NCBI GenBank assembly: GCA_964429775.1
Contig: CAYSDJ010000008.1
Coordinates: 4,261-68,260, forward strand
Origin: an uncultured Rhizobiaceae bacterium
Lineage (GTDB): Bacteria; Pseudomonadota; Alphaproteobacteria; UBA828
Direction of reading: 5' to 3'
Length of the DNA stretch: 64,000 nt
The notes under the pieces are model-generated. The model was not told where the DNA came from, did not search any database, and saw only the letters and a program-made list of their open reading frames with translations. Of this stretch, positions 3,637 to 62,252 are shown one piece after another (within the stretch, counting starts at the first letter, position 1; every line of letters starts with the position of its first letter). Both the position numbers and the translations under genes were made by a program.

Positions 3637-3957
3637 AAGGCGCCCTCCTCATTGCATTCATCCGCCCCATGGTTTTCTATCGCGCTTGGCCAAAGGTCAA
3701 GCACCAGCAGAAGCAAGATGACAAAGATTGCCGCTCGATGGGCGCGCATCCGGTTGCGGACCACGAGAGCTGGACACCACAGCAACCATAGCAGCGGGCA
3801 AGGCGCCGGATGCCGCGGTGGCGCTCTATTTCAGCCCATAAATCGCGCAGCGTGACTCGCTCAGCGGAGCAAATGTTAAAACCTTATTAGGGAATTCCTC
3901 ATAGTCTGAAACCCAGGATATATCTGTAGATCGCTACAATTGTTCGGGGATTCTTAA

Positions 3958-5301
3958 ATGGTGAATTCGGCCCGTGTTCTGGTTGCGGACGGAAACCTCA
4001 AAACGCTCAATCTCGTCAGCGAATGTTTACGCCGGCTTGGTTTGGTAAATTTGCTCGAAACCTCTGCTTCCAAGGCGATCAGCCGGGCACAAAATGAGCG
4101 CCCCGAAGTTATGCTTTTGGGGCTCGAATTCAATGACCGCAGCTGCGCGAGCATCATTTCCGACCTCAAGTCTTCCGACGAATCATGCGATATCCCGGTT
4201 CTTCTAATGGTCGGTGAAAATGGGGCGCCCGATTGGTCCAAGGAATTTGTCACCCAGTTTGACGAAGTGATCGAGTGGCCGTTCGGCGACGAGCAGGTTC
4301 AGGCGCACGTGACCGCCGCATTGCGTCTTGGCACCATGCGCTCGGAGCTCAACCGGAGAAACGAGACCTTGCGCTTTTTCGGCGCCGGCAGCGCCGACAA
4401 TTGGCATGCCGAGAAATCCGATAATCCGCCCCATATCCTTTTGGCGCGCGGCGATGGCGCCGGCGACGACGGCGTCGAAGAAGCCTTGAAGGGCTTTTCC
4501 CGCTTGGAAACGGAGCAGCTCGGCAGCAATGTTCTGGGAACGCTCAGCGGCTCCGATATCGAATTTGTCGTAATCTCGGAAAATGACGATTTTCAGGCGG
4601 CGCTCGATACCTGCGACGATATCCGGCGCAACCCCACCCTCTTCCACATGCCGATCCTGACGATATGCTCGGCCGATCCTGAGCATATCGCGCAGGCCTA
4701 CCGGCATGGTGCGACGGCGGCCTTTTCCCTGCCGCTCAATGGCGACGAATTGCGCGCCCGGGCAACGATGGGCGTTCGCTCGCATCGCCTGCGCGGTCAT
4801 ATGCTGAACGCTTATCGCGCCGGCAAAAATCATGCGATGAGCGACGGCACCACCGGGCTCTACAGCGCTGAATTTTTCCACCAGCATTTGCAGACCTTGG
4901 TGGCGGATGCCGAGCGCTGGGACAAATCGCTCTCTCTTAACGTGATTGCCGTGCCGGAAGTCAGCCATATCCGCAGTGAATATGGCGATAACGCAGCGGA
5001 TCATCTGTTGAAACAATTGAGCGGCATGATTTCGCGCCTGGTACGCGGTGAAGATTTGTGCGCCCGGCTCGACGACACAACTTTCTGCATCGCCTTGCCG
5101 GAAAGCCCGCTGGAAGCGGCAAGCCCGACCATGCAGCGCATGGCCGGCGTATTGGGTTTCACCGAATATTCCCTCCTTGAGATCGCCGCACCGGTGAATA
5201 TCCACCCGCGCATTGGCAGTGCCGAGTACAAATCAGGCGATTCGGTGGAAGACCTGATCGGGCGCGCCCTATCAACAGCATTGGCGGCCAACGCGGCCTA
5301 A
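3958..5301 (+). CDS. PleD/PopA-like REC-REC-GGDEF protein with degenerate receiver Asp and degenerate GGDEF (DDTTF); I-site RxxD retained
   Basis: Two CheY-like domains are followed by a GGDEF fold. The A-site reads RLDDTTF instead of GG[DE]EF. An RGED motif lies 5 aa upstream, like the I-site. The REC1 phospho-acceptor position reads LLGLEF (Gly in place of Asp). Confidence 0.7.
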   Translation: MVNSARVLVADGNLKTLNLVSECLRRLGLVNLLETSASKAISRAQNERPEVMLLGLEFNDRSCASIISDLKSSDESCDIPVLLMVGENGAPDWSKEFVTQFDEVIEWPFGDEQVQAHVTAALRLGTMRSELNRRNETLRFFGAGSADNWHAEKSDNPPHILLARGDGAGDDGVEEALKGFSRLETEQLGSNVLGTLSGSDIEFVVISENDDFQAALDTCDDIRRNPTLFHMPILTICSADPEHIAQAYRHGATAAFSLPLNGDELRARATMGVRSHRLRGHMLNAYRAGKNHAMSDGTTGLYSAEFFHQHLQTLVADAERWDKSLSLNVIAVPEVSHIRSEYGDNAADHLLKQLSGMISRLVRGEDLCARLDDTTFCIALPESPLEAASPTMQRMAGVLGFTEYSLLEIAAPVNIHPRIGSAEYKSGDSVEDLIGRALSTALAANAA

Positions 5302-12766: not shown

Positions 12767-13550
12767 CCTGGCCACTGCCGCACGCTCGGTCTTAAACGAA
12801 GCGAACGCGGACGAGAAAGCGGCGCGCACGCTCATCGCCGTGGCGGCATGGCGCGCCGGTGATCTTCCGCCCGGCGATGAACATACCGCCATGCCGGAAA
12901 GGCCGGCGCGCCCGGCCCGGCCTAAGCTCCTGCCGCCGCGCGATATGCCGCGCCGGCGGACCGGTGGCACGGCAGGGCGCATCGCCCTCCTGCATGCCGT
13001 CACTCATATCGAGCTGAACGCGATTGATCTGGCCTGGGATTTGATTGGCCGCTTCGGCGCCGAGGACTGGCCCGGCGAATTTTACGCCGATTGGCTTGGC
13101 GTGGCGGAAGACGAGGCGCGCCATTTTCAATTATTGCAAGGGCGCTTGAACGATCTCGGTGCGGGTTACGGCGACCTGCCGGCGCATGACGGTTTGTGGC
13201 AGGCGGCGATGGCAACCGCGCACGATCCCCTCGCCCGCCTCGCCGTCGTGCCGATGGTGCTCGAAGCGCGCGGGCTCGACGTGACGCCGGACATGATCGC
13301 CCGCCTGCGCCGCGCCGGGGACGACAGCAGCGCCGATATTCTCGAAGTTATCTACCAAGAGGAAATCGCCCATGTTGCCGCCGGCACACGCTGGTTCAAT
13401 CATCTCTGTCACGCGCGCGGCCTGCCCGAGATCGAAACTTGGCGCGCGCTGGTCGGCAAATATTACGGCGGAATTCTGAAAGCCCCCTTCAACGAAGCAG
13501 CGCGCAGCGCCTCTGGCATGGCGCCGGAGCTTTACGCTTCGCTCGGCTGA
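12756..13550 (+). CDS. DUF455 ferritin-like domain protein
   Basis: ATG at 12756 overlaps the bcp stop by 11 nt. The diiron-like helical core has EEARH-type motifs (AEDEARHFQLL, EEIAHVAAG). Confidence 0.65.
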
Positions 13551-14681
13551 TTTTCCTCACCGCCCTCGGGCGCATCGCCCAGCACGCCGATACGCTGGGC
13601 CAGGGATGCGGCCATGAATTCGTCGAGATCGCCGCCGAGCACCGCATCCGGGTTGGTGTTCTCGATGTTGGTACGGAGATCCTTCACGAGTTGATAGGGT
13701 TGCAAGACGTATGAGCGGATTTGGTGGCCCCAGCCGATGTCGCTTTTTTGCGCGTTCAGGGCCTGAGATTCTTCTTCGCGGCGCTGTAATTCAGCTTCAT
13801 AGAGGCGCGCCTTCAGCATTGACATGGCGGCGGCGCGGTTGCGGTGTTGCGAGCGTTCTGCCTGGCACTGCACGACGATGTTGGACGGCAGGTGGGTGAT
13901 GCGCACCGCGCTGTCGGTACGATTAACATGTTGTCCGCCGGCGCCCGAGGCACGGTAGGTGTCGATGCGCAAATCCTTCTCTTCGATGGCGATATCGATG
14001 CTGTCGTCGATCACCGGAAAAACCCAGACGGAGGCGAAGCTGGTATGGCGCCGCGCATTCGAATCGAAGGGCGATATGCGCACCAGGCGGTGCACGCCGC
14101 TTTCCGTCTTGAGCCAGCCATAGGCCATGGCGCCGGTGATCTTGATGGTCGCCGATTTGATTCCGGCCTCCTCGCCGGCACTTTCCTCGATCCACTCGAC
14201 CTTGCGCCCGCTGGCGCCGGACCAGCGCACATACATGCGCAGCAGCATCTCGGCCCAATCCTGCGATTCGGTACCACCGGCGCCGGCATGGACCTCGAGG
14301 AAGCAGTCATTGGTGTCCGCCTCGCCCGATAGCAGGCTTTCAAGCTCGAGCTTCTTGGCCCGGCTTTGCAGCTCGCGCAAAGCTTCTTCCGCTTCGCTAT
14401 AGCTCTCTTCGTCCTTTTCCTCTTCGGCCAGCTCGGCCAGGGCCAGGGCGTCGTCAAGCTCTTGCTGCAAAGAGTTGTAGCCGGTAATCGCCTGATCGAG
14501 CCGCGTGCGTTCCCGCATGACCGCCTGCGCCGCTTCGGGGTTGTTCCACAGTTCCGGATCTTCGGCGCGGACGTTCAGCTCTTCCAGATCCTTATTTGCC
14601 TTCTCGAGGTCAAAGATGCCTCCTCAGCAGAACCATGGACTGCTTAATCTGGTCGGCCAGGGAAAGAATATCGGCGCGCAT
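13532..14681 (-). CDS. prfB: peptide chain release factor 2, with programmed +1 ribosomal frameshift (CUU UGA C at 14615..14609)
   Basis: The main ORF contains the SPF and GGQ motif (RASGAGGQHVNRTDSAVRITHLP). A 23-codon ORF0 runs from ATG 14681 to TGA 14612..14610. An internal SD, AGGAGG-CAT-CTT-TGA-C, precedes the shift. The +1 frame continues as DLEKANKDLEEL and onward into the main ORF. Confidence 0.9.
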
Positions 14682-26252: not shown

Positions 26253-27254
26253 CTAAATCAGACCGCCGAGCGGCGACGACGGGTCGGCATATTGTTTTTT
26301 CGCCATTCGCCCGGCCAAATAGGCCATTCTGCCCGCTTCCACCGCGAGACGCATGGCATGGGCCATGGCGATCGGGTCCTTGGCCTCCGCGATGGCTGTG
26401 TTCATCAACACGCCGTCACAGCCAAGCTCCATGGCAATCGCCGCATCCGAAGCCGTGCCCACCCCGGCATCAACAAGAACCGGGACCGAGCTGTTTTCGA
26501 TGATAATGCGCAGATTCACGGGATTTTGCACGCCAAGGCCGGAGCCGATCGGCGCCGCCAATGGCATGATCGAGACAGCGCCCAAATCTTCCAGCTTTTT
26601 CGCCATTATCGGGTCGTCGCTGCAATAGACCATGACATCGAAACCCTCTTTGACCAGCAATTCGGTGGCGCTCAGGGTTTCGATCATGTTCGGGTAAAGG
26701 GTGGTTTGGTCGCCCAAAACCTCCAATTTCACCAGTTTCCAGCCCCCCGCCTCACGCGCCAGGCGGAGCGTGCGCACCGCGTCTTCGGCGGTAAAACAGC
26801 CGGCGGTATTGGGCAGATAGGTATATTTCTTGGGGTCGAGATAATCGACCAGCATCGGCTCATCCGGGTTGCTCACATTGACGCGTCGGACGGCAACCGT
26901 GACGATTTCCGCCCCCGAGGCCTCGGCGGCACGGGCGGTTTCGGGGAAATCGCGGTATTTTCCGGTGCCGATAATGAGACGGGAAGTGAATTTCCGCCCG
27001 GCCACGCTCCAGCCCTGCCCCTCGCCGTCAAGCACCGGCGCGGCGCTTGCGGCGCTGCCGCCACCGATGAAATGGACGATCTCCAAGCGGTCCCCGTCCT
27101 CCACCGGCGTGCCGTCATAGGCGCCCTTCGGCACAATCTCGAGATTGCGCTCCACGGCGATCTTGCGCGGGTCGAAGCCGAGGCTCCGCAACATGGAATT
27201 GACCGTCAGGGGACCGTCAAAATTACGCGCTTCGCCATTAATCTGAATCTGCAT
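26253..27254 (-). CDS. thiG: ThiS-ThiG fusion (sulfur carrier + thiazole synthase)
   Basis: The N-terminal 66 aa form a ThiS-like domain ending ...VHFIGGG. It continues in frame into ThiG (LIIGTGKY..., Schiff-base Lys region). ATG at 27254. Confidence 0.8.
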
Positions 27255-27480
27255 TTCGCCGCTTTTATCCTTCCACCGGCGGCGGGCCGCGCCCGGCCGC
27301 CATATTGCAAACCAATCTGAATTAGAGTATGGCCACGTCCCTCGGCATTTCAACCGTTTGGGCGATCAAGCGGCGAAATTGCATAATAAACGCCCGAACC
27401 GCAGATTGAACCGAGACAATCGCTGAGCACGCGCCCGCTCTCTCTTGGTGCTAATAAGTTTGAATTGGTTTAGTATGGTT
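27255..27480 (-). promoter_or_regulatory. thiS-thiG leader; possible TPP riboswitch (unconfirmed)
   Basis: The 225-nt leader lies upstream of a thiamine biosynthesis gene. The minus strand contains CTTGATCGCCC...TGCCGAGGGA, which loosely resembles the 3' half of the THI element. No clean CUGAGA box was seen. Confidence 0.25.
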
Positions 27481-39947: not shown

Positions 39948-40847
39948 ATGAATAAGAAAACACATTCCGGTTTTTTCGGCGTCTATCCGATGCTGTTGGC
40001 GTTTTTTCAGGCCGACGGCAGTCTTGATTTGAACACAACCGCCCGGCAAGTCGATGCCCTGGTTAAACACGGCGCGCATGGCTGTGCGGTGATGGGTTTG
40101 GGGACGGAGGTCAACAAGCTCTCCTATCAGGAGCGCCGTGCGGTGATCGATGCAGTGGCCGAGCGTCTGGATGGCCGCCTGCCCTTCTGTGTCACTGTGG
40201 GCGAGAACAATGTTGCCGGGCAGATCGAATTCGCCCGCGCCGCCGAGGCCGCCGGCGCCGATTGGCTGATCCTCCAGCCGCCAACCGTCGGCGAATTGCC
40301 GGAGCGGGAATTGCTGCGCTTTTTCGGCCAGATTGCCGAGGCGATCAGCCTGCCGCTCGGCGTGCAGAATGCGCCGCAATATTTAGGCATTGGTCTCTCC
40401 AATGCCGGATTGCGCGATCTGCACGCGCAGCACGAGAATTTCAAAATTGTCAAAATCGAGGATGACCCGCTCGCCTTGCCGCCGCTGCTTGACGCCACCG
40501 ATGGTGCGCTCGATGTGTTTGTCGGGCGCGCCGGCCTGGAGGCATTGGAAGTCTTCCGCGCCGGCGCCTGCGGCCTGATACCCGGCTTCGAAACTTTCGA
40601 CCGCTTGGCCCTGTTGTTTGATCATCTTGATGAAGGGCGCGATGCCGAAGCCGATGCGCTCTATCAAAGCGTCGAGCCCGCACTCGTCTTCATGCTGAAA
40701 TCAATCAACCATTTCGTTACCTATTCGCGCGAACTATCCGCCCGCCGCCTGGCGCTTGCGCATATACACCACCGGCTCGGCGTTGATGTGACGCCGCTCG
40801 GTCAGCGCCTGGTCGAGAAAATCGCGTTGCAGTTGGGCCCCCTTTGA
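39948..40847 (+). CDS. dihydrodipicolinate synthase/N-acetylneuraminate lyase (DapA) family protein
   Basis: TIM-barrel class I aldolase blocks (GCAVMGLGTE...GVQNAPQYLG). The stop overlaps the downstream HK start. Confidence 0.7.
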   Translation: MNKKTHSGFFGVYPMLLAFFQADGSLDLNTTARQVDALVKHGAHGCAVMGLGTEVNKLSYQERRAVIDAVAERLDGRLPFCVTVGENNVAGQIEFARAAEAAGADWLILQPPTVGELPERELLRFFGQIAEAISLPLGVQNAPQYLGIGLSNAGLRDLHAQHENFKIVKIEDDPLALPPLLDATDGALDVFVGRAGLEALEVFRAGACGLIPGFETFDRLALLFDHLDEGRDAEADALYQSVEPALVFMLKSINHFVTYSRELSARRLALAHIHHRLGVDVTPLGQRLVEKIALQLGPL

Positions 40848-41989
40848 GCGGCACACGAAAAACAACCGCGCGTCTCGACAATAGCGAAATCCTCGCCGCT
40901 GCCGGGCATGATTTGCGCCAACCGATGCACTCGCTCAATCTGGTTTTGGGCGCTCTCGCCGGACGTGCCGAAGATTCCGAAACCGCCGCACTGGTGAACA
41001 GCGCACAGATTTCAGCCGACGGCGTTACCAGTGTGCTGGAAACGCTGCTCGGAATTGCCACCATGGACGCCGGCGGCGCGGCGCCGGAAGTTTCCCAATT
41101 CGCCGTGCAGGACCTGCTCCAGCATCTCAGCGAACAATTTACCCAGCGCGCCGCCAATAAGGGTCTTCAGCTGCGCATTATGCCCTGCACCCTCAGCATC
41201 AGGAGCGACCGCGTGTTGTTGCAGCGGATATTGGAGGCGCTCCTCTCCAATGCCATACGCCATAGCGAAAGCGGGCATATCCTGCTCGGCTGCCGCCGAA
41301 CAAAGCGTGCGCTGCGTATCGGTGTGTTGGACCAGGGGCCGGGCCTGAACGAAGAAATGGCGGCGCGATTTTCCACCGTCAACAGCCAAGATGGCGCGTT
41401 TTCGAAATCAAGCTGGCGCGGCTATGCCTTGGGCCTCTCGATCGCGCAATATATTTGCGCCGCACTTGGCCATGACATGACCGTGGTGTCGCGCCAAGGA
41501 AAAGGTGCCGCTATTTGGCTGAAAGTGGATTTGGTCGGGGCGCAGACCAAAAGCACCGCAGAAGCCGTTTCCCCTCCCCCCCTCGCCCCGGAAGAGAGCG
41601 ATGCCGCCATCGCTATCATCGAGGACGACCCGGATATTCTATTTGCAACAACGCAATTCCTAACCGGTTGGGGATATCGCGTCTGCGGCGGCAAAACAGC
41701 AGCGGCGACAATTCAGGATATCGAGACGAATGGCGGCGGCGCCTGCCCTGATCTGGTGCTGTCGGATTTCAATCTGCCCGAGGGGCAAACGGCGGTGGAC
41801 GCGATGGCCGAACTGAACCATCACTTCGACACGGAAATCCCGGCCATCATTATCACCGGTGACCCGTCCGCGCCGGGTATCGCCGAGGCACGGGAGCTCA
41901 ATTACGAAATTCTGAACAAGCCGCTGCGCGCCGCCAAGCTGCGCGCGCTGGTTCGCTACACCCTGGCGGAGAGACCGCAAACATCGTGA
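40844..41989 (+). CDS. cytoplasmic hybrid histidine kinase (HisKA-HATPase-REC) with no sensor domain
   Basis: H-box AAGHDLRQPMHS at residue ~22 and N/G boxes (LSNAIRHS, GYALGLSIAQ). C-terminal receiver with LVLSDFNLPEGQ and no TM segment. Confidence 0.8.
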   Translation: MSGTRKTTARLDNSEILAAAGHDLRQPMHSLNLVLGALAGRAEDSETAALVNSAQISADGVTSVLETLLGIATMDAGGAAPEVSQFAVQDLLQHLSEQFTQRAANKGLQLRIMPCTLSIRSDRVLLQRILEALLSNAIRHSESGHILLGCRRTKRALRIGVLDQGPGLNEEMAARFSTVNSQDGAFSKSSWRGYALGLSIAQYICAALGHDMTVVSRQGKGAAIWLKVDLVGAQTKSTAEAVSPPPLAPEESDAAIAIIEDDPDILFATTQFLTGWGYRVCGGKTAAATIQDIETNGGGACPDLVLSDFNLPEGQTAVDAMAELNHHFDTEIPAIIITGDPSAPGIAEARELNYEILNKPLRAAKLRALVRYTLAERPQTS

Positions 41990-43321: not shown

Positions 43322-43912
43322 ATGAGTTCCGACGCAGCGGATGCAAAAACAGCGCTTAGAGTGAGAGCGCTTGAATCGTTGCTGCTCGAAAAGGGGCTGA
43401 TCGAGACGGACGCGATCGACGAGCTGGTCGATATGTTCGAAAACCGGCTTGGCCCCTGGAACGGCGCCAAGGTCGTCGCCCGGGCATGGACCGACCCCGC
43501 CTTTAAGGAGCGGCTGTTGCAGGACGGCACGGCGGCGCTGGCGGATATGGGTTTCGACACCATCCAGGGCGAAGAAATGGTGATCGTCGAGAACACCCCA
43601 GCTATCCACAATGTTATCGTCTGCACGCTCTGTTCCTGCTTCCCCTGGGCGGTCCTCGGCCTGCCGCCGGTATGGTATAAATCGGCGCCCTACCGGGCCG
43701 AGGCGGCGCGCGACCCGCGTGGTGTGCTGCGCGAATTCGGCACCGAAATAGACGGCGAGACCGAAGTACGCGTGTGGGACAGCAATGCCGAGCTACGCTA
43801 CATGGTGTTGCCCGAGCGGCCGGCGGGAACCGACGATATGGACGCAGCGGCGCTGGCCGAGCTGGTCACACGCGATTCGATGATCGGTGTCAGCAAGGTG
43901 GCGCCGCCATGA
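43322..43912 (+). CDS. nitrile hydratase alpha subunit-like protein (Co-type claw motif VCTLCSC)
   Basis: Near-collinear with Rhodococcus NHase alpha. The [10 protein letters not shown] metal-binding claw lies at nt 43622..43639. An RBS AGAAGGGAG precedes the ATG. Confidence 0.9.
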
Positions 43913-43937
43913 GCGCGCGCCTGAGAGGAGACCTGAG

Positions 43938-44249
43938 ATGAACAGCATTCACGATATGGGCGGCATGCACGGCCTCGGACCGCTTGATCTTTCAGACGAT
44001 GATATCGTCTTTCATGCCGCCTGGGAGGGCCGCGTCATGGCGCTGGCCCGCGCCATGATGGCGGGCAAGCACTTCAATCTCGATGAATACCGTCACGCCA
44101 TGGAGCGCATCGACCCGGCCCGCTACCTGCAACTCAGCTATTATGAGAAATGGCTGGAAGGCACGCTCACGATGCTGATGGAGAAGGGCGTTATCACGCA
44201 GCTGGAGTTCGATGCGCATTTAAACAAATTGACAGAGGCGGATTCGTGA
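43938..44249 (+). CDS. nitrile hydratase beta subunit, N-terminal-half protein (split beta)
   Basis: MNSIHDMGGMHGLGP...FHAAWEGRVMA matches the NHase beta N-domain. It ends at the domain linker. Confidence 0.8.
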   Translation: MNSIHDMGGMHGLGPLDLSDDDIVFHAAWEGRVMALARAMMAGKHFNLDEYRHAMERIDPARYLQLSYYEKWLEGTLTMLMEKGVITQLEFDAHLNKLTEADS

Positions 44250-44599
44250 TGCCGGTGGTCAATCTCGAATTGGTCAAGAGCCTCTACAAAACCCCTGGCG
44301 CCGCCCGCTTGCCGGTCGATGTGGCGCCGCGCTTCAAGGCCGGCGATTCGATCGTCGCGCGCAATATCAACCCGCCCGGTCACACCCGCCTGCCGCGCTA
44401 TATCCGCGACAAGAAAGGTGTTGTCGAACACGATCTCGGCGTCTTCCACCTACCCGATTCACGCGCCGCCGGCAGCGGCGATAACGCGCAGCACATGTAC
44501 ACCGTGCGCTTCGAAGCACGCGAAGTCTGGGGCGACGAAGCGCCGGCCAATGACAGCCTGCGGATTACACTGTGGGACGACTATATGAACCCGGCCTGA
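44249..44599 (+). CDS. nitrile hydratase beta subunit, C-terminal-half protein (split beta)
   Basis: The ATG overlaps the previous stop (TGATG). FKAGDSIVARNINPPGHTRLPRYIRDKKG...YTVRFEAREVWG matches the NHase beta C-domain. Confidence 0.8.
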   Translation: MPVVNLELVKSLYKTPGAARLPVDVAPRFKAGDSIVARNINPPGHTRLPRYIRDKKGVVEHDLGVFHLPDSRAAGSGDNAQHMYTVRFEAREVWGDEAPANDSLRITLWDDYMNPA

Positions 44600-44621
44600 G
44601 CGGCAAATAAGAGAAACAGCG

Positions 44622-45344
44622 ATGCGAAAAATCCTCGCCGTGCCGAACCTCACCATGCCCGAGCAACGTGCCGGCGCCACCCTGCCGCGCGACAGCGACG
44701 ATGTGGTTTTCTCCGAGGCATGGCAGGCACATGCCTTTGCCGTGATTATGTCGCTCTATCAGGATGGTCATTATAATTGGGCCGAATGGGACGATTATCT
44801 CGGCCATTGCATCCAGGCACCCGGGCATTTCGCCAAAGCCCCGGGCGAAGACACCGAAGGCGGCGAGGAAGCGATTCGTACTGGAAGCAATCGAAGCCCG
44901 TTCCTTACCGCCTGTGAGCGTGACGGCGCGAAATATTATCATTTTTGGCTCGCCGCGACGGAACAATTGCTCGACGCCAAAGGCCTGGTGAGCACCGCCG
45001 AATTGGATGCGCGTGTTGCCGCCATCGACAAGGCCGAACAGTCCGGGCCGCGCTTTAGCGCCGGAGGGCGCGTTCTGGTGCGAGACATCAAGCGCGAGGG
45101 CCACACCCATCTGCCGCTCTATCTGCGCGGCAAGACCGGCGTGGTGGAAAGCGACCGCGGCTTGTTCGTCTTTCCCGAAGGTGCCGGGCATAATCATGAT
45201 CACGATCATAAGCATGACGGTGCCGACACCCTGCAGCATGTCTTTTGCGTCCGCTTTTCAGCAACGGATATTTGGGGTGAATCAGCTTCCGCCACACATG
45301 ATTTGAATTTCAATCTCTGGGACTATCAGTTGGAGGCAGCATGA
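44622..45344 (+). CDS. full-length NHase beta-like paralogue / accessory (activator)-like protein with His-rich insertion (GHNHDHDHKHDG)
   Basis: The N-terminus (LPRDSDDVVFSEAWQAHAFAV) resembles NHase activator/accessory proteins. The C-terminus (GGRVLVRDIKREGHTHLPLYLRGKTG...FCVRFSATDIWG) resembles the beta C-domain. Confidence 0.7.
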   Translation: MRKILAVPNLTMPEQRAGATLPRDSDDVVFSEAWQAHAFAVIMSLYQDGHYNWAEWDDYLGHCIQAPGHFAKAPGEDTEGGEEAIRTGSNRSPFLTACERDGAKYYHFWLAATEQLLDAKGLVSTAELDARVAAIDKAEQSGPRFSAGGRVLVRDIKREGHTHLPLYLRGKTGVVESDRGLFVFPEGAGHNHDHDHKHDGADTLQHVFCVRFSATDIWGESASATHDLNFNLWDYQLEAA

Positions 45345-45943
45345 TGGAAAAATCTGCTGCAGGTGAGCTGGCACGCCTGATTCGTGAGGATGACGGCGCT
45401 CTCTATGCCGACGATGCCGCCGCCCGCGCCATCGCCATCGTCATGAACCTGTTTCACCAGGAGCATTACGCCTGGCCGCAATGGGTCGACAAGTTCAGCG
45501 CCGAAATCGATGCGCCGGGGCATTTCCGGCATTCGCCGGATAGCGCCGAACACGCCGAGGCCGTGCTGAGCGGTGACGCCAAGCGCATCAATCGCAATTA
45601 CGCCGAGCTGTGGCTCGCCGCTTGTGAAAAGCTATTGCAAGAAAAAGGACTAACGACGCCAGCTGAACTTAGCGCCAAGCTGGCAACGCTACAGCCTAAA
45701 CAACCGCCCGCCCATGCCTTCGCGCTGGGCACGCGCGTTATTGTGCGCGATATCGAACCGTCTGAATCAGATCATTTGCCGCTATTCATACGCGGCAAGG
45801 CCGGCAGCGTGGAACGGCAATTGGGCGAGGCTAAATATAATGTTCGCTTCACGGCGCAAGAGATTTGGGGCACCGACGCACCCGGGCGGGACAGTTTAAA
45901 CTTCACCATCGCGCACCAATATCTGTCGCCCGAAAACTCCTAG
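45341..45943 (+). CDS. second full-length NHase beta-like paralogue / accessory-like protein
   Basis: The ATG overlaps the previous stop (ATGA). Features are DDGALYADDAAARAIAIV... and a beta C-domain-like GTRVIVRDIEPSESDHLPLFIRGKAG...YNVRFTAQEIWG. Confidence 0.7.
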   Translation: MMEKSAAGELARLIREDDGALYADDAAARAIAIVMNLFHQEHYAWPQWVDKFSAEIDAPGHFRHSPDSAEHAEAVLSGDAKRINRNYAELWLAACEKLLQEKGLTTPAELSAKLATLQPKQPPAHAFALGTRVIVRDIEPSESDHLPLFIRGKAGSVERQLGEAKYNVRFTAQEIWGTDAPGRDSLNFTIAHQYLSPENS

Positions 45944-51318: not shown

Positions 51319-52755
51319 ATGCCGCTTTGGGCGGGAAAGGTCTGCGTGGCAACTACCGACAAAGAGAGTCTTCCCGGCCCGGATAGACACCCGCCGTTTG
51401 GCGCCTTGCGTGGGCTCGACCGCGTCGCTACTTGGTTTGTCGATGAACGATCTTATCCAGACCCGGATGACAGATTGCGCGCCAAAGTATTCGTCATCGC
51501 GCACTTTCTTTCTCCCAACCTTGCACTCGCCATTGCCGCCTTGCTGTATTTCGTCGCGGATGTTGCCGCGCCGCCCCTATATTGGCTGGTTCTCGGTTTC
51601 GCTCTGTTTTTTATCTATCCCTTTACGGTGAAGTGGGGCCTTTCCTACCGAATCGCGAGCGTTCCATCCCTTGTGCAGTTCTCGCTGTTGATCTATTCGG
51701 CGCTTTATTATTTCAACGGCATCGTATCCTTTATCATACCGTGGATTGCCGCCATCCCGGTCGTCGGAATGTTATTCCTCGGCGTTCGCGGCGCGGTGTT
51801 GACCAGCGGCCTCGCCGTGCTCGGAATTCTGACGATGCTGTTAATGCATTTCTCGGGTCACGAGTTTCCGCAAACAATTACCGAGGGTTTCCAGCCCCTG
51901 GCTTTTATTGTTTCGGCAACGCTCAGCCTTGTATTCATCTCAGGCATCGTCCTTTGCTATCTTAGCTTATATTGGCTATCGCAACGCCGCCTGTACCTTG
52001 AGCTGGCGCGCCATCGCCAAACGACGGCGCGGTTTCGTGCCGCCCGGGACGCCGCCAATGAAGCGAGCCTTGCCAAATCGCGCTTTCTCGCCACGGCCTC
52101 GCACGAATTCCGCACACCGCTTACAACCATTCAGGCGGGCGTCGATCTCTTGTTACGCTACCGGGACAAGCTCGACGAAAATGAGAGCACGGAATACCTC
52201 CAGGATGTGACACGTCAGGTAAACGCGCTGACGCAACTTTTGGATAATTTGCTTCTTGTTGGTGAGGAGGATGAGGCAAAAATTCTGTTTCGTCCCGAGT
52301 TGATCAAGCTCGCCGATGTCTGTCAGGACATCACACGCCAAATGCGCCTTAGCGGTGAATCCGACCTTCGCCTTGATGTCCGTTTCCTGAGCGATTGCAA
52401 AATAGCCTATTTGGATAAGGCCATCGTCAGACGCATCCTGTCGAACCTGTTGTCCAACGCGATTAAATATTCTCCGCCCGATGGCGAGGTTTCGCTCAGC
52501 GTTTCACGCCACAACGGCAATATTCTGTTTGAGGTCGCCGACAATGGCGAAGGCATCGCCGAAACCGAATTGGCGCGTATCTTCGAACGTTATTACCGGG
52601 TTAGTGAAACCGCACGGGTTGGCGGCACGGGCCTCGGGCTATCGATCGTCAAGGCGGCTGTCGAGGCACATCACGGTACGATACAGGTCGAAAGCAGCCT
52701 CGGCATTGGCAGCCGCTTTATTGTCAGCCTGCCCGCACCGCTTAATGCTGCGTGA
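51319..52755 (+). CDS. membrane sensor histidine kinase (6-7 TM N-terminal domain, HisKA, HATPase_c)
   Basis: H-box ATASHEFRTPLTTI, N-box LLSNAIKYS and G-boxes. The N-terminal half is polytopic membrane. The start codon is uncertain. Confidence 0.8.
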   Translation: MPLWAGKVCVATTDKESLPGPDRHPPFGALRGLDRVATWFVDERSYPDPDDRLRAKVFVIAHFLSPNLALAIAALLYFVADVAAPPLYWLVLGFALFFIYPFTVKWGLSYRIASVPSLVQFSLLIYSALYYFNGIVSFIIPWIAAIPVVGMLFLGVRGAVLTSGLAVLGILTMLLMHFSGHEFPQTITEGFQPLAFIVSATLSLVFISGIVLCYLSLYWLSQRRLYLELARHRQTTARFRAARDAANEASLAKSRFLATASHEFRTPLTTIQAGVDLLLRYRDKLDENESTEYLQDVTRQVNALTQLLDNLLLVGEEDEAKILFRPELIKLADVCQDITRQMRLSGESDLRLDVRFLSDCKIAYLDKAIVRRILSNLLSNAIKYSPPDGEVSLSVSRHNGNILFEVADNGEGIAETELARIFERYYRVSETARVGGTGLGLSIVKAAVEAHHGTIQVESSLGIGSRFIVSLPAPLNAA

Positions 52756-62177: not shown

Positions 62178-62252
62178 TGGCGACCCCTACGGGAATTGAA
62201 CCCGTGTCTCCACCTTGAAAGAGTGGTGTCCTAACCTCTAGACGAAGGGGTC
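62178..62252 (-). tRNA. tRNA-Glu (anticodon UUC)
   Basis: The minus-strand 75-nt sequence GACCCCTTCGTCTAGAGGTTAGGACACCACTCTTTCAAGGTGGAGACACGGGTTCAATTCCCGTAGGGGTCGCCA folds as a cloverleaf. It has a 7-bp acceptor stem, the anticodon loop CTTTCAA, and an encoded CCA. Confidence 0.85.

Follow-up and report, generated by a model that had tools for sequence, protein, structure and literature searches.

A gene at nucleotides 3958-5301 (+) of a 64,000-nt stretch of DNA from an uncultured Rhizobiaceae bacterium (contig CAYSDJ010000008.1 of GenBank assembly GCA_964429775.1; the whole stretch is referred to here as the window) encodes what is probably a receptor for cyclic di-guanosine monophosphate (c-di-GMP). 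Judging from its sequence, the protein would be a descendant of a PleD-type diguanylate cyclase that is neither catalytic nor phosphorylatable and that belongs to the same superfamily as PopA of Caulobacter. PopA is the classic example of an enzyme that has become a receptor: its dead GGDEF domain senses c-di-GMP and its pseudo-receivers act as outputs; c-di-GMP promotes its polar recruitment, and its output is the RcdA/ClpXP-dependent degradation of CtrA. The original prediction for this gene had described a protein of PleD architecture with every catalytic or phospho-acceptor position substituted and an intact inhibitory site (I-site), likened it to PopA, and proposed that it could be neither phosphorylated nor make c-di-GMP yet might still bind it. 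The substitutions were borne out, and the comparison with PopA was supported, with two corrections.

Domain architecture and functional residues

The open reading frame (ORF) runs for 447 amino acids (aa) from ATG to TAA. Its start is backed by 13 homologues with the N-terminus M-x-x-S/I-A-R-V-L-V, and its stop (5299-5301) is common to the family, whose C-termini read ...AANAA; an artefactual truncation of the C-terminus was ruled out, as the chain stops at one common position throughout the family. The Pfam GGDEF model matched residues 293-437 (68 bits) over model positions 1-147 of 161, leaving the domain without its final part, and Response_reg matched residues 7-118 below threshold (28.1 bits against a cutoff of 30.2). 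The NCBIfam PleD equivalog NF007135 aligned across the whole protein at 140.5 bits and did not reach its 474-bit cutoff. All of the best sequence matches in the PDB were PleD structures (1w25, 2v0n, 2wb4 and 9g85), with residues 4-439 of the ORF aligning nearly gap-free to PleD residues 2-436 (1w25/9g85) at 21-23% identity. An AlphaFold2 model built with 13 family sequences as input (predicted local distance difference test, pLDDT, 87; predicted template modelling score, pTM, 0.87) showed a pair of receiver folds, each (beta-alpha)5, and then a GGDEF fold; its top structural match in Foldseek, over the full length, was PleD. By alignment and predicted fold, the protein is a REC-REC-GGDEF homologue of PleD from end to end, with the following features, in which A-site denotes the active site:

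3958-5301 (+): coding sequence of the PleD/PopA-superfamily protein, REC1 (pseudo)-REC2 (pseudo)-GGDEF (degenerate)
3970-4332 (+): REC1 pseudo-receiver, aa 5-125, from the PleD alignment and the AlphaFold2 model
4426-4782 (+): REC2 pseudo-receiver, aa 157-275, containing the superfamily-invariant R223 and the motif IRRNPTLFHxP
4825-5298 (+): degenerate GGDEF domain, aa 290-447, short of the K442/R446 motif, from Pfam and residue mapping
5044-5055 (+): I-site RxxD, R363-G-E-D366, compared with RAID 359-362 of PleD
5071-5085 (+): degenerate A-site DDTTF replacing GG(D/E)EF, residues 372-376, compared with GGEEF 368-372 of PleD
5137-5139 (+): R394, the third I-site residue and equivalent of PleD R390, from the alignment (148/149 superfamily sequences)

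Functional residues of PleD were transferred to the ORF through a MAFFT alignment, which places the REC1 phospho-acceptor D53 on G55, within LLGLEF (nt 4120-4122), as the original prediction had read it. In the AlphaFold2 model residues 51-54 form strand beta3 and G55 marks the C-terminal end of that strand, and the glycine is invariant among the aligned full-length family members (13/13). Three further residues of the REC1 active-site quintet are lost as well (D10 to G12, T83 to V85 and K105 to W107), and D9 alone is kept, as D11. An acceptor aspartate that might reappear after gap adjustment was searched for and ruled out: the family alignment has no conserved acidic residue beside G55, E57 being variable and D60 corresponding to the usual aspartate of the 'MDG' loop. 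Given the invariant Gly55, the family would be entirely independent of phosphorylation. REC2, for which a degeneracy like that of PleD had been claimed, has S207 as the acceptor-equivalent residue after beta3, a position that is Ser, Ala, Gly or Asp across the family, and Pfam gave no REC2 detection in the ORF.

The GGDEF domain likewise aligned as it had been read, with DDTTF on the A-site of PleD and RGED on its RxxD motif, separated by the same five-residue spacer. Its catalytic losses extend further than had been listed, to D327 (now A331), N335 (now R339) and the C-terminal 'AKxxGRN' motif, of which the K442 position is Asn and the R446 position does not exist. Within the family the A-site pentapeptide drifts (DDTTF, DNTTF, DDESF, GDDSF, GEAGF, GSDGI, GETGF and GDHAF). 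The I-site triad of PleD (R359, D362 and R390) is kept in full as R363, D366 and R394; the last of these, a retained feature added by this analysis, is the same in all 13 aligned full-length sequences of the family, and the longest invariant block in the family, LVRGEDLCARL (nt 5038-5070), encloses the I-site. With the acceptor, three more REC1 residues, GG(D/E)EF, the metal- and guanosine triphosphate (GTP)-binding residues and the C-terminal phosphate-binding motif gone throughout the family, the protein is predicted neither to be phosphorylated nor to synthesise c-di-GMP.

Conservation and relation to PopA

A word-indexed search returned 19 close relatives at 36-100% identity, all of them metagenomic, and 11 loci came from a scan of GTDB genomes, each in a metagenome-assembled genome of an uncultured, mostly marine alphaproteobacterium, among them 'Rhodospirillaceae bacterium SI073_bin108' (95% identity) and 'MarineAlpha10_Bin2'. 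The ratio of nonsynonymous to synonymous substitution rates (dN/dS, Nei-Gojobori) was 0.07 for the 95%-identical orthologue and 0.11-0.22 for those at greater distance. Over six orthologue comparisons the ratio per domain was 0.06-0.28 (0.06-0.21 for REC1), similarly low in REC1, REC2 and GGDEF, which indicates that the whole protein is maintained by purifying selection and is functional and not decaying; a pseudogene or decaying relic was ruled out by the dN/dS of 0.07-0.2. As a separate observation, the protein diverges much faster than its neighbours: in comparisons of loci L001-L012 with the window, where it is 32-37% identical the adjacent acyl-CoA dehydrogenase still has 72-74% identity and GlnE 56%; at locus L010 it is 32% identical and the adjacent acyl-CoA dehydrogenase 74%.

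When a profile of the family was compared with 1.84 billion representatives from 50%-identity clustering, 732 proteins matched at E<1e-30. The best 150 of the 732 are nearly all 430-460 aa long and have in common the motif R-x-E-D-[LMV]-x-A-R, an equivalent of R390 and a C-terminus that is cut short; in most of them the A-site and the REC1 pocket are degenerate. In 149 sequences of this PleD-derived superfamily, from which four PleD-like sequences had been excluded, R363 (149/149), D366 (148/149), R394 (148/149) and E365 (97%) rank among the best-conserved residues anywhere in the protein, whereas the equivalents of the catalytic residues are kept in 9-60% (E370 in 9%, D327 in 23%, G368 in 42% and N335 in 44%), and the acceptor position is Asp in 27% and Gly in 31%. 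A conserved I-site beside drifting catalytic and acceptor sites is the signature expected where an allosteric c-di-GMP pocket, and neither catalysis nor phosphorylation, is under selection, and the 99-100% conservation of the I-site triad supports the earlier suggestion that the protein may still bind c-di-GMP.

Two further observations concern the superfamily. Outside the GGDEF domain, R223 of REC2 is present in all 149 sequences, and R123, E130 and R134 of the linker are 99% conserved; R223 could be a substitute second c-di-GMP contact or an interdomain latch. Some superfamily members of about 440 aa (P0024, P0026, P0040, P0042 and P0064) have GGEEF and intact equivalents of D327, N335 and D344, most of them without the C-terminal K442/R446 motif and with degenerate REC1 pockets, and these GGEEF-bearing proteins may be intermediates between cyclase and receptor.

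Several superfamily members are labelled 'cell cycle response regulator PopA' by IMG, and clusters P0217 and P0218 are Phenylobacterium (Caulobacteraceae) proteins, for example P. glaciei WP_215342793.1. These 440-aa proteins have their acceptor aspartate at D55 and their RxxD arginine at R357; because this numbering matches that of PopA, they were treated as PopA orthologues and used as a proxy for C. crescentus PopA, in which R357G abolishes c-di-GMP binding (PMC8020655). Neighbour-joining trees of 168 sequences, which are unrooted and in which long-branch attraction among fast-evolving degenerate lineages is possible, united the true PleD-likes (those with DD/D/T/K, GGEEF and K/R all intact) as one clade in 200/200 bootstraps and placed the PopA orthologues and the window family on the opposite side, the window family itself being monophyletic in 200/200. 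Ten derived residues are common to the PopA orthologues and the window family, and usually to the rest of the superfamily, and occur in no PleD-like protein; Q353, L361 and E365, which are among them, all flank the I-site.

The resemblance to the PopA orthologues extends to the REC-REC-GGDEF architecture, a degenerate A-site (GPEVF in the PopA orthologue), the lost D327 and N335 equivalents, a C-terminus that ends before the K442/R446 motif, and an intact I-site of RVED plus the distal arginine. The two proteins are nevertheless only about 25% identical and come from different hosts, Caulobacterales for PopA and an uncultured marine alphaproteobacterium for the window protein. REC1 of the PopA orthologue lacks the equivalents of D9/D10, T83 and K105, where the window protein keeps D9 (as D11), and the PopA orthologues retain Asp55, where the window family has its invariant glycine. 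Asp55 was reportedly found to be dispensable for PopA function by Duerig et al. in 2009. The description 'PopA-like' is thus upheld for homology, through the common superfamily, the ten shared derived residues and a chain of synteny described below, and does not extend to the acceptor residue or to a claim on the PopA output, RcdA/ClpXP-dependent CtrA degradation. PleD shares with the window protein the full-length alignment, the best structural match, a degenerate REC2, the I-site triad and its five-residue spacer, and the PleD linker residues R121, E128 and R132 are kept; unlike the window protein, PleD has the acceptor Asp, GGEEF, the metal- and GTP-binding residues, AKxxGRN, and R148/R178/R313.

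Upstream region and genomic neighbourhood

Two features adjoin the gene:

3876-3890 (+): TTAAAACCTTATTAG, a CtrA-site-like box of the form TTAA-N7-TTAG, 82 bp before the start codon
5378-6043 (+): DsbA-like thioredoxin-fold gene, directly downstream, Pfam DSBA (PF01323) at 145 bits

The box lies within the 320-bp gap between the divergent acyl-CoA synthetase gene and the gene under study, and is the sole match to TTAA-N7-TTAR on either strand of the window; no exact TTAA-N7-TTAA is present in the window. It recurs 62-88 bp upstream of the orthologue at all 12 family loci and at L016, L017 and L019 (P0080 and P0092 loci); L018 differs in the spacing of its half-sites. When 14 upstream regions were aligned, no columns but those of the TTAA and TTA half-sites were invariant, and many loci have a -10-like CATAnT about 20 bp downstream of the box, which probably overlaps the -35 region of the promoter. 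The CtrA consensus is TTAA-N7-TTAA, and most promoters that CtrA activates have a single site, at -35 (PMC11264516). From the conservation and position of the box we infer that transcription of the gene is CtrA-dependent. No sigma-70-like promoter was found upstream, and an Rfam scan of the window at gathering thresholds reported no RNA element near the gene, its only match being a tRNA-Glu at 62178-62252.

The DsbA-like gene follows in the same orientation at every family locus with downstream sequence, and divergent acyl-CoA synthetase and dehydrogenase genes usually precede. No terminator-like site was found between the gene and its DsbA-like neighbour, and the two may be co-transcribed. 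The genes that come directly after popA in Phenylobacterium are mfd, sdh5 and recG. The window family lacks these neighbours and is flanked by acyl-CoA genes and dsbA-like/yhdP/glnE, but the P0080, P0092 and P0183 clades have both, in the order gene, dsbA-like, mfd and then sdh5 on the opposite strand, with recG next in two of the three; the DsbA-like protein of L016 is 51% identical to the window copy. These intermediate clades connect the window locus to the popA locus, which speaks for a common ancestral locus of the clades that were sampled. DsbA-like genes were located at 11388-12041 in L016, 9422-10069 in L018 and 1607-2257 in L019.

Genes flanking the locus in the window are of housekeeping type (acyl-CoA dehydrogenase and synthetase, yhdP-like, glnE, bcp, prfB, PBP1A, amiC and rne). 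The prfB gene for release factor 2 (13532-14681, -) has an ordinary programmed +1 frameshift site, CTT TGA C at about 14609-14615, with an AGGAGG-like sequence before it. A nitrile hydratase cluster (43322-45943, +) has its alpha subunit at 43322-43912 and a beta subunit apparently split between overlapping frames (43887-44249 and 44150-44599), which could be a frameshift or an assembly error; the ORFs that follow, at 44622-45344 (similar by eye) and 45341-45943 (weak Pfam matches to the nitrile hydratase beta subunit), could encode accessory proteins. One frame at 26253-27353 (-) joins ThiS (residues 35-98) and ThiG (residues 116-360) and could be either a fusion or an over-extended start; the Rfam scan of the window reported no thiamine pyrophosphate riboswitch. 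Two histidine kinases, a hybrid one (HisKA-HATPase-REC) at 40844-41989 (+) and another at 51319-52755 (+), have no evident link to the gene under study, and no cognate response regulator for either was identified in the window.

Mechanism, alternatives and meaning

If the protein acts as a c-di-GMP receptor, intercalated c-di-GMP would bind the allosteric I-site of the dead GGDEF domain through R363, D366 and R394. By analogy with PopA, the flow of signal would be reversed relative to PleD, with the GGDEF domain as input and the pseudo-receivers as output surfaces that contact partners, and ligand binding may alter the oligomeric state or domain packing. Caulobacter PopA binds c-di-GMP with a dissociation constant (Kd) of about 2 uM (PMC8020655), and this binding promotes its dimerisation and enables its function as a ClpXP adaptor (PMC8020655, PMC7010744). 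The promoter with its conserved CtrA-type box would tie the protein to the CtrA regulon, in the cell cycle or motility. A catalytically dead GGDEF domain that keeps RxxD as a c-di-GMP receptor is also known from PelD of Pseudomonas aeruginosa (PMC10333796), which shares this principle with the window protein; PelD is a membrane protein of transmembrane-GAF-GGDEF architecture, of separate origin and without REC-REC, and its homology to the window protein is limited to the GGDEF fold.

A number of observations count against a c-di-GMP receptor related to PopA and controlled by CtrA. The last base of the box is G and not the canonical A in most loci, and Phenylobacterium popA showed no such box upstream. 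The 64-kb window holds no further GGDEF or EAL gene and no rcdA, cpdR, clpX or ctrA, and with no c-di-GMP or CtrA-pathway genes nearby the functional context is not readable from the neighbours. The use of Phenylobacterium proteins in place of C. crescentus PopA and the limits of the trees named above count in the same direction, as does the generic IMG name 'cell cycle response regulator', without PopA, of the window-family members. The IMG-'PopA' clade P0080/P0092 was the family's sister in 40/200 neighbour-joining bootstraps (20%), a relationship that we do not claim, and hidden Markov models (HMMs) scored the family at 142 bits for PleD-like proteins, above the 116 bits for a narrow Caulobacteraceae-PopA model, with the P0080/P0092 clade highest at 256 bits. 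Together with the missing mfd/recG neighbours of popA, the generic name, the poorly supported sister group and the HMM scores would suit an independently degenerated PleD orthologue that converged with PopA and is perhaps an I-site receptor with an unrelated output. We regard such convergence as unlikely, since the PleD clade is monophyletic (200/200) and contains neither PopA nor the window family, PopA and the family have ten derived residues in common that no PleD has, as well as the C-terminal truncation and the RxED motif, and the intermediate clades carry the dsbA-like gene plus the mfd-sdh5-recG neighbours. The HMM ranking is attributed to slow evolution of PleD and fast evolution of Caulobacteraceae PopA, plus the differing diversity of the HMMs, and was judged uninformative for orthology.

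The secondary I-site arginines of PleD (R148, R178 and R313), which are not conserved in the 149 sequences, also count against the receptor reading, and any crosslinking must therefore differ from that of PleD. Their absence would fit a protein that serves purely as a scaffold or pseudo-enzyme, has no nucleotide ligand and keeps RxxD and R394 for structural reasons, as salt bridges or an interdomain latch, as would the fact that equivalents of D362 and R366 are common in GGDEF domains generally. We give little credence to this view, because conservation in the 149 sequences peaks at the R, the D and the distal R390 equivalent while the fold-central GG(D/E)EF hairpin varies. The RxxD motif occurs in only a fraction of GGDEF domains, whose fold does not depend on it. 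Binding of c-di-GMP by PopA requires the homologous R357 (PMC8020655). It is very improbable that the I-site has been retuned to another guanine nucleotide, be it guanosine tetra- or pentaphosphate ((p)ppGpp), cyclic GMP-AMP (cGAMP) or 5'-phosphoguanylyl-(3'-5')-guanosine (pGpG): the pocket does have Glu in R-x-E-D (97%) where PleD has Ile, with the flanking changes Q353 and L361, and PleD itself binds (p)ppGpp, but it does so at the active site, which is destroyed here, and not at the I-site, and the PopA orthologue has the same motif as R-V-E-D, with c-di-GMP bound by Caulobacter PopA at the Kd given above (PMC8020655). A residual or non-canonical diguanylate cyclase, or a regulator phosphorylated through an alternative acceptor, is scarcely credible. 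Some superfamily members do read GGEEF with D327, N335 and D344 intact, but this protein and its family lack GG(D/E)EF, the D327/N335 equivalents and the K442/R446 motif, and the score against the NCBIfam PleD equivalog is 140 bits for a cutoff of 474; as for phosphorylation, G55 is invariant, 4/5 of the REC1 active-site residues have gone and the vicinity holds no conserved Asp or Glu.

With a c-di-GMP receptor of the PopA superfamily thus preferred, the phylogenetic, syntenic and promoter observations can be joined in a broader and more tentative reading, which we consider possible and somewhat short of probable: PopA-type receptors, instead of having arisen recently and only in the Caulobacterales, would be an old family at a conserved genomic position across Alphaproteobacteria, with popA-like–dsbA-like–mfd–sdh5–recG as the ancestral locus, an invariant I-site triad and, in many lineages, a conserved CtrA-type box. 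The window protein would be the fully phosphorylation-independent Gly55 form of a CtrA-controlled, c-di-GMP-gated adaptor. If true, the c-di-GMP/CtrA cell-cycle circuit would reach far past Caulobacter, into free-living marine alphaproteobacteria. To our knowledge, PopA is usually treated as specific to Caulobacter. It is stated to be absent from Sinorhizobium, and some of the literature has it missing outside the relatives of Caulobacter (PMC11929396). Receptors that use the I-site of a degenerate GGDEF domain, including 'PopA-like receptors' in Alphaproteobacteria, have already been described (PMC10333796). The window protein is well supported as an added member of this known receptor class from an uncultured marine lineage, with glycine at the acceptor position as a minor variant feature. 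For the single gene, the outcome is a well-supported functional annotation and no surprise. If confirmed, R-x-E-D together with the distal arginine and the truncated C-terminus would form a signature that predicts receptors, and CtrA-linked control through c-di-GMP-gated adaptors may prove widespread in uncultured marine alphaproteobacteria.

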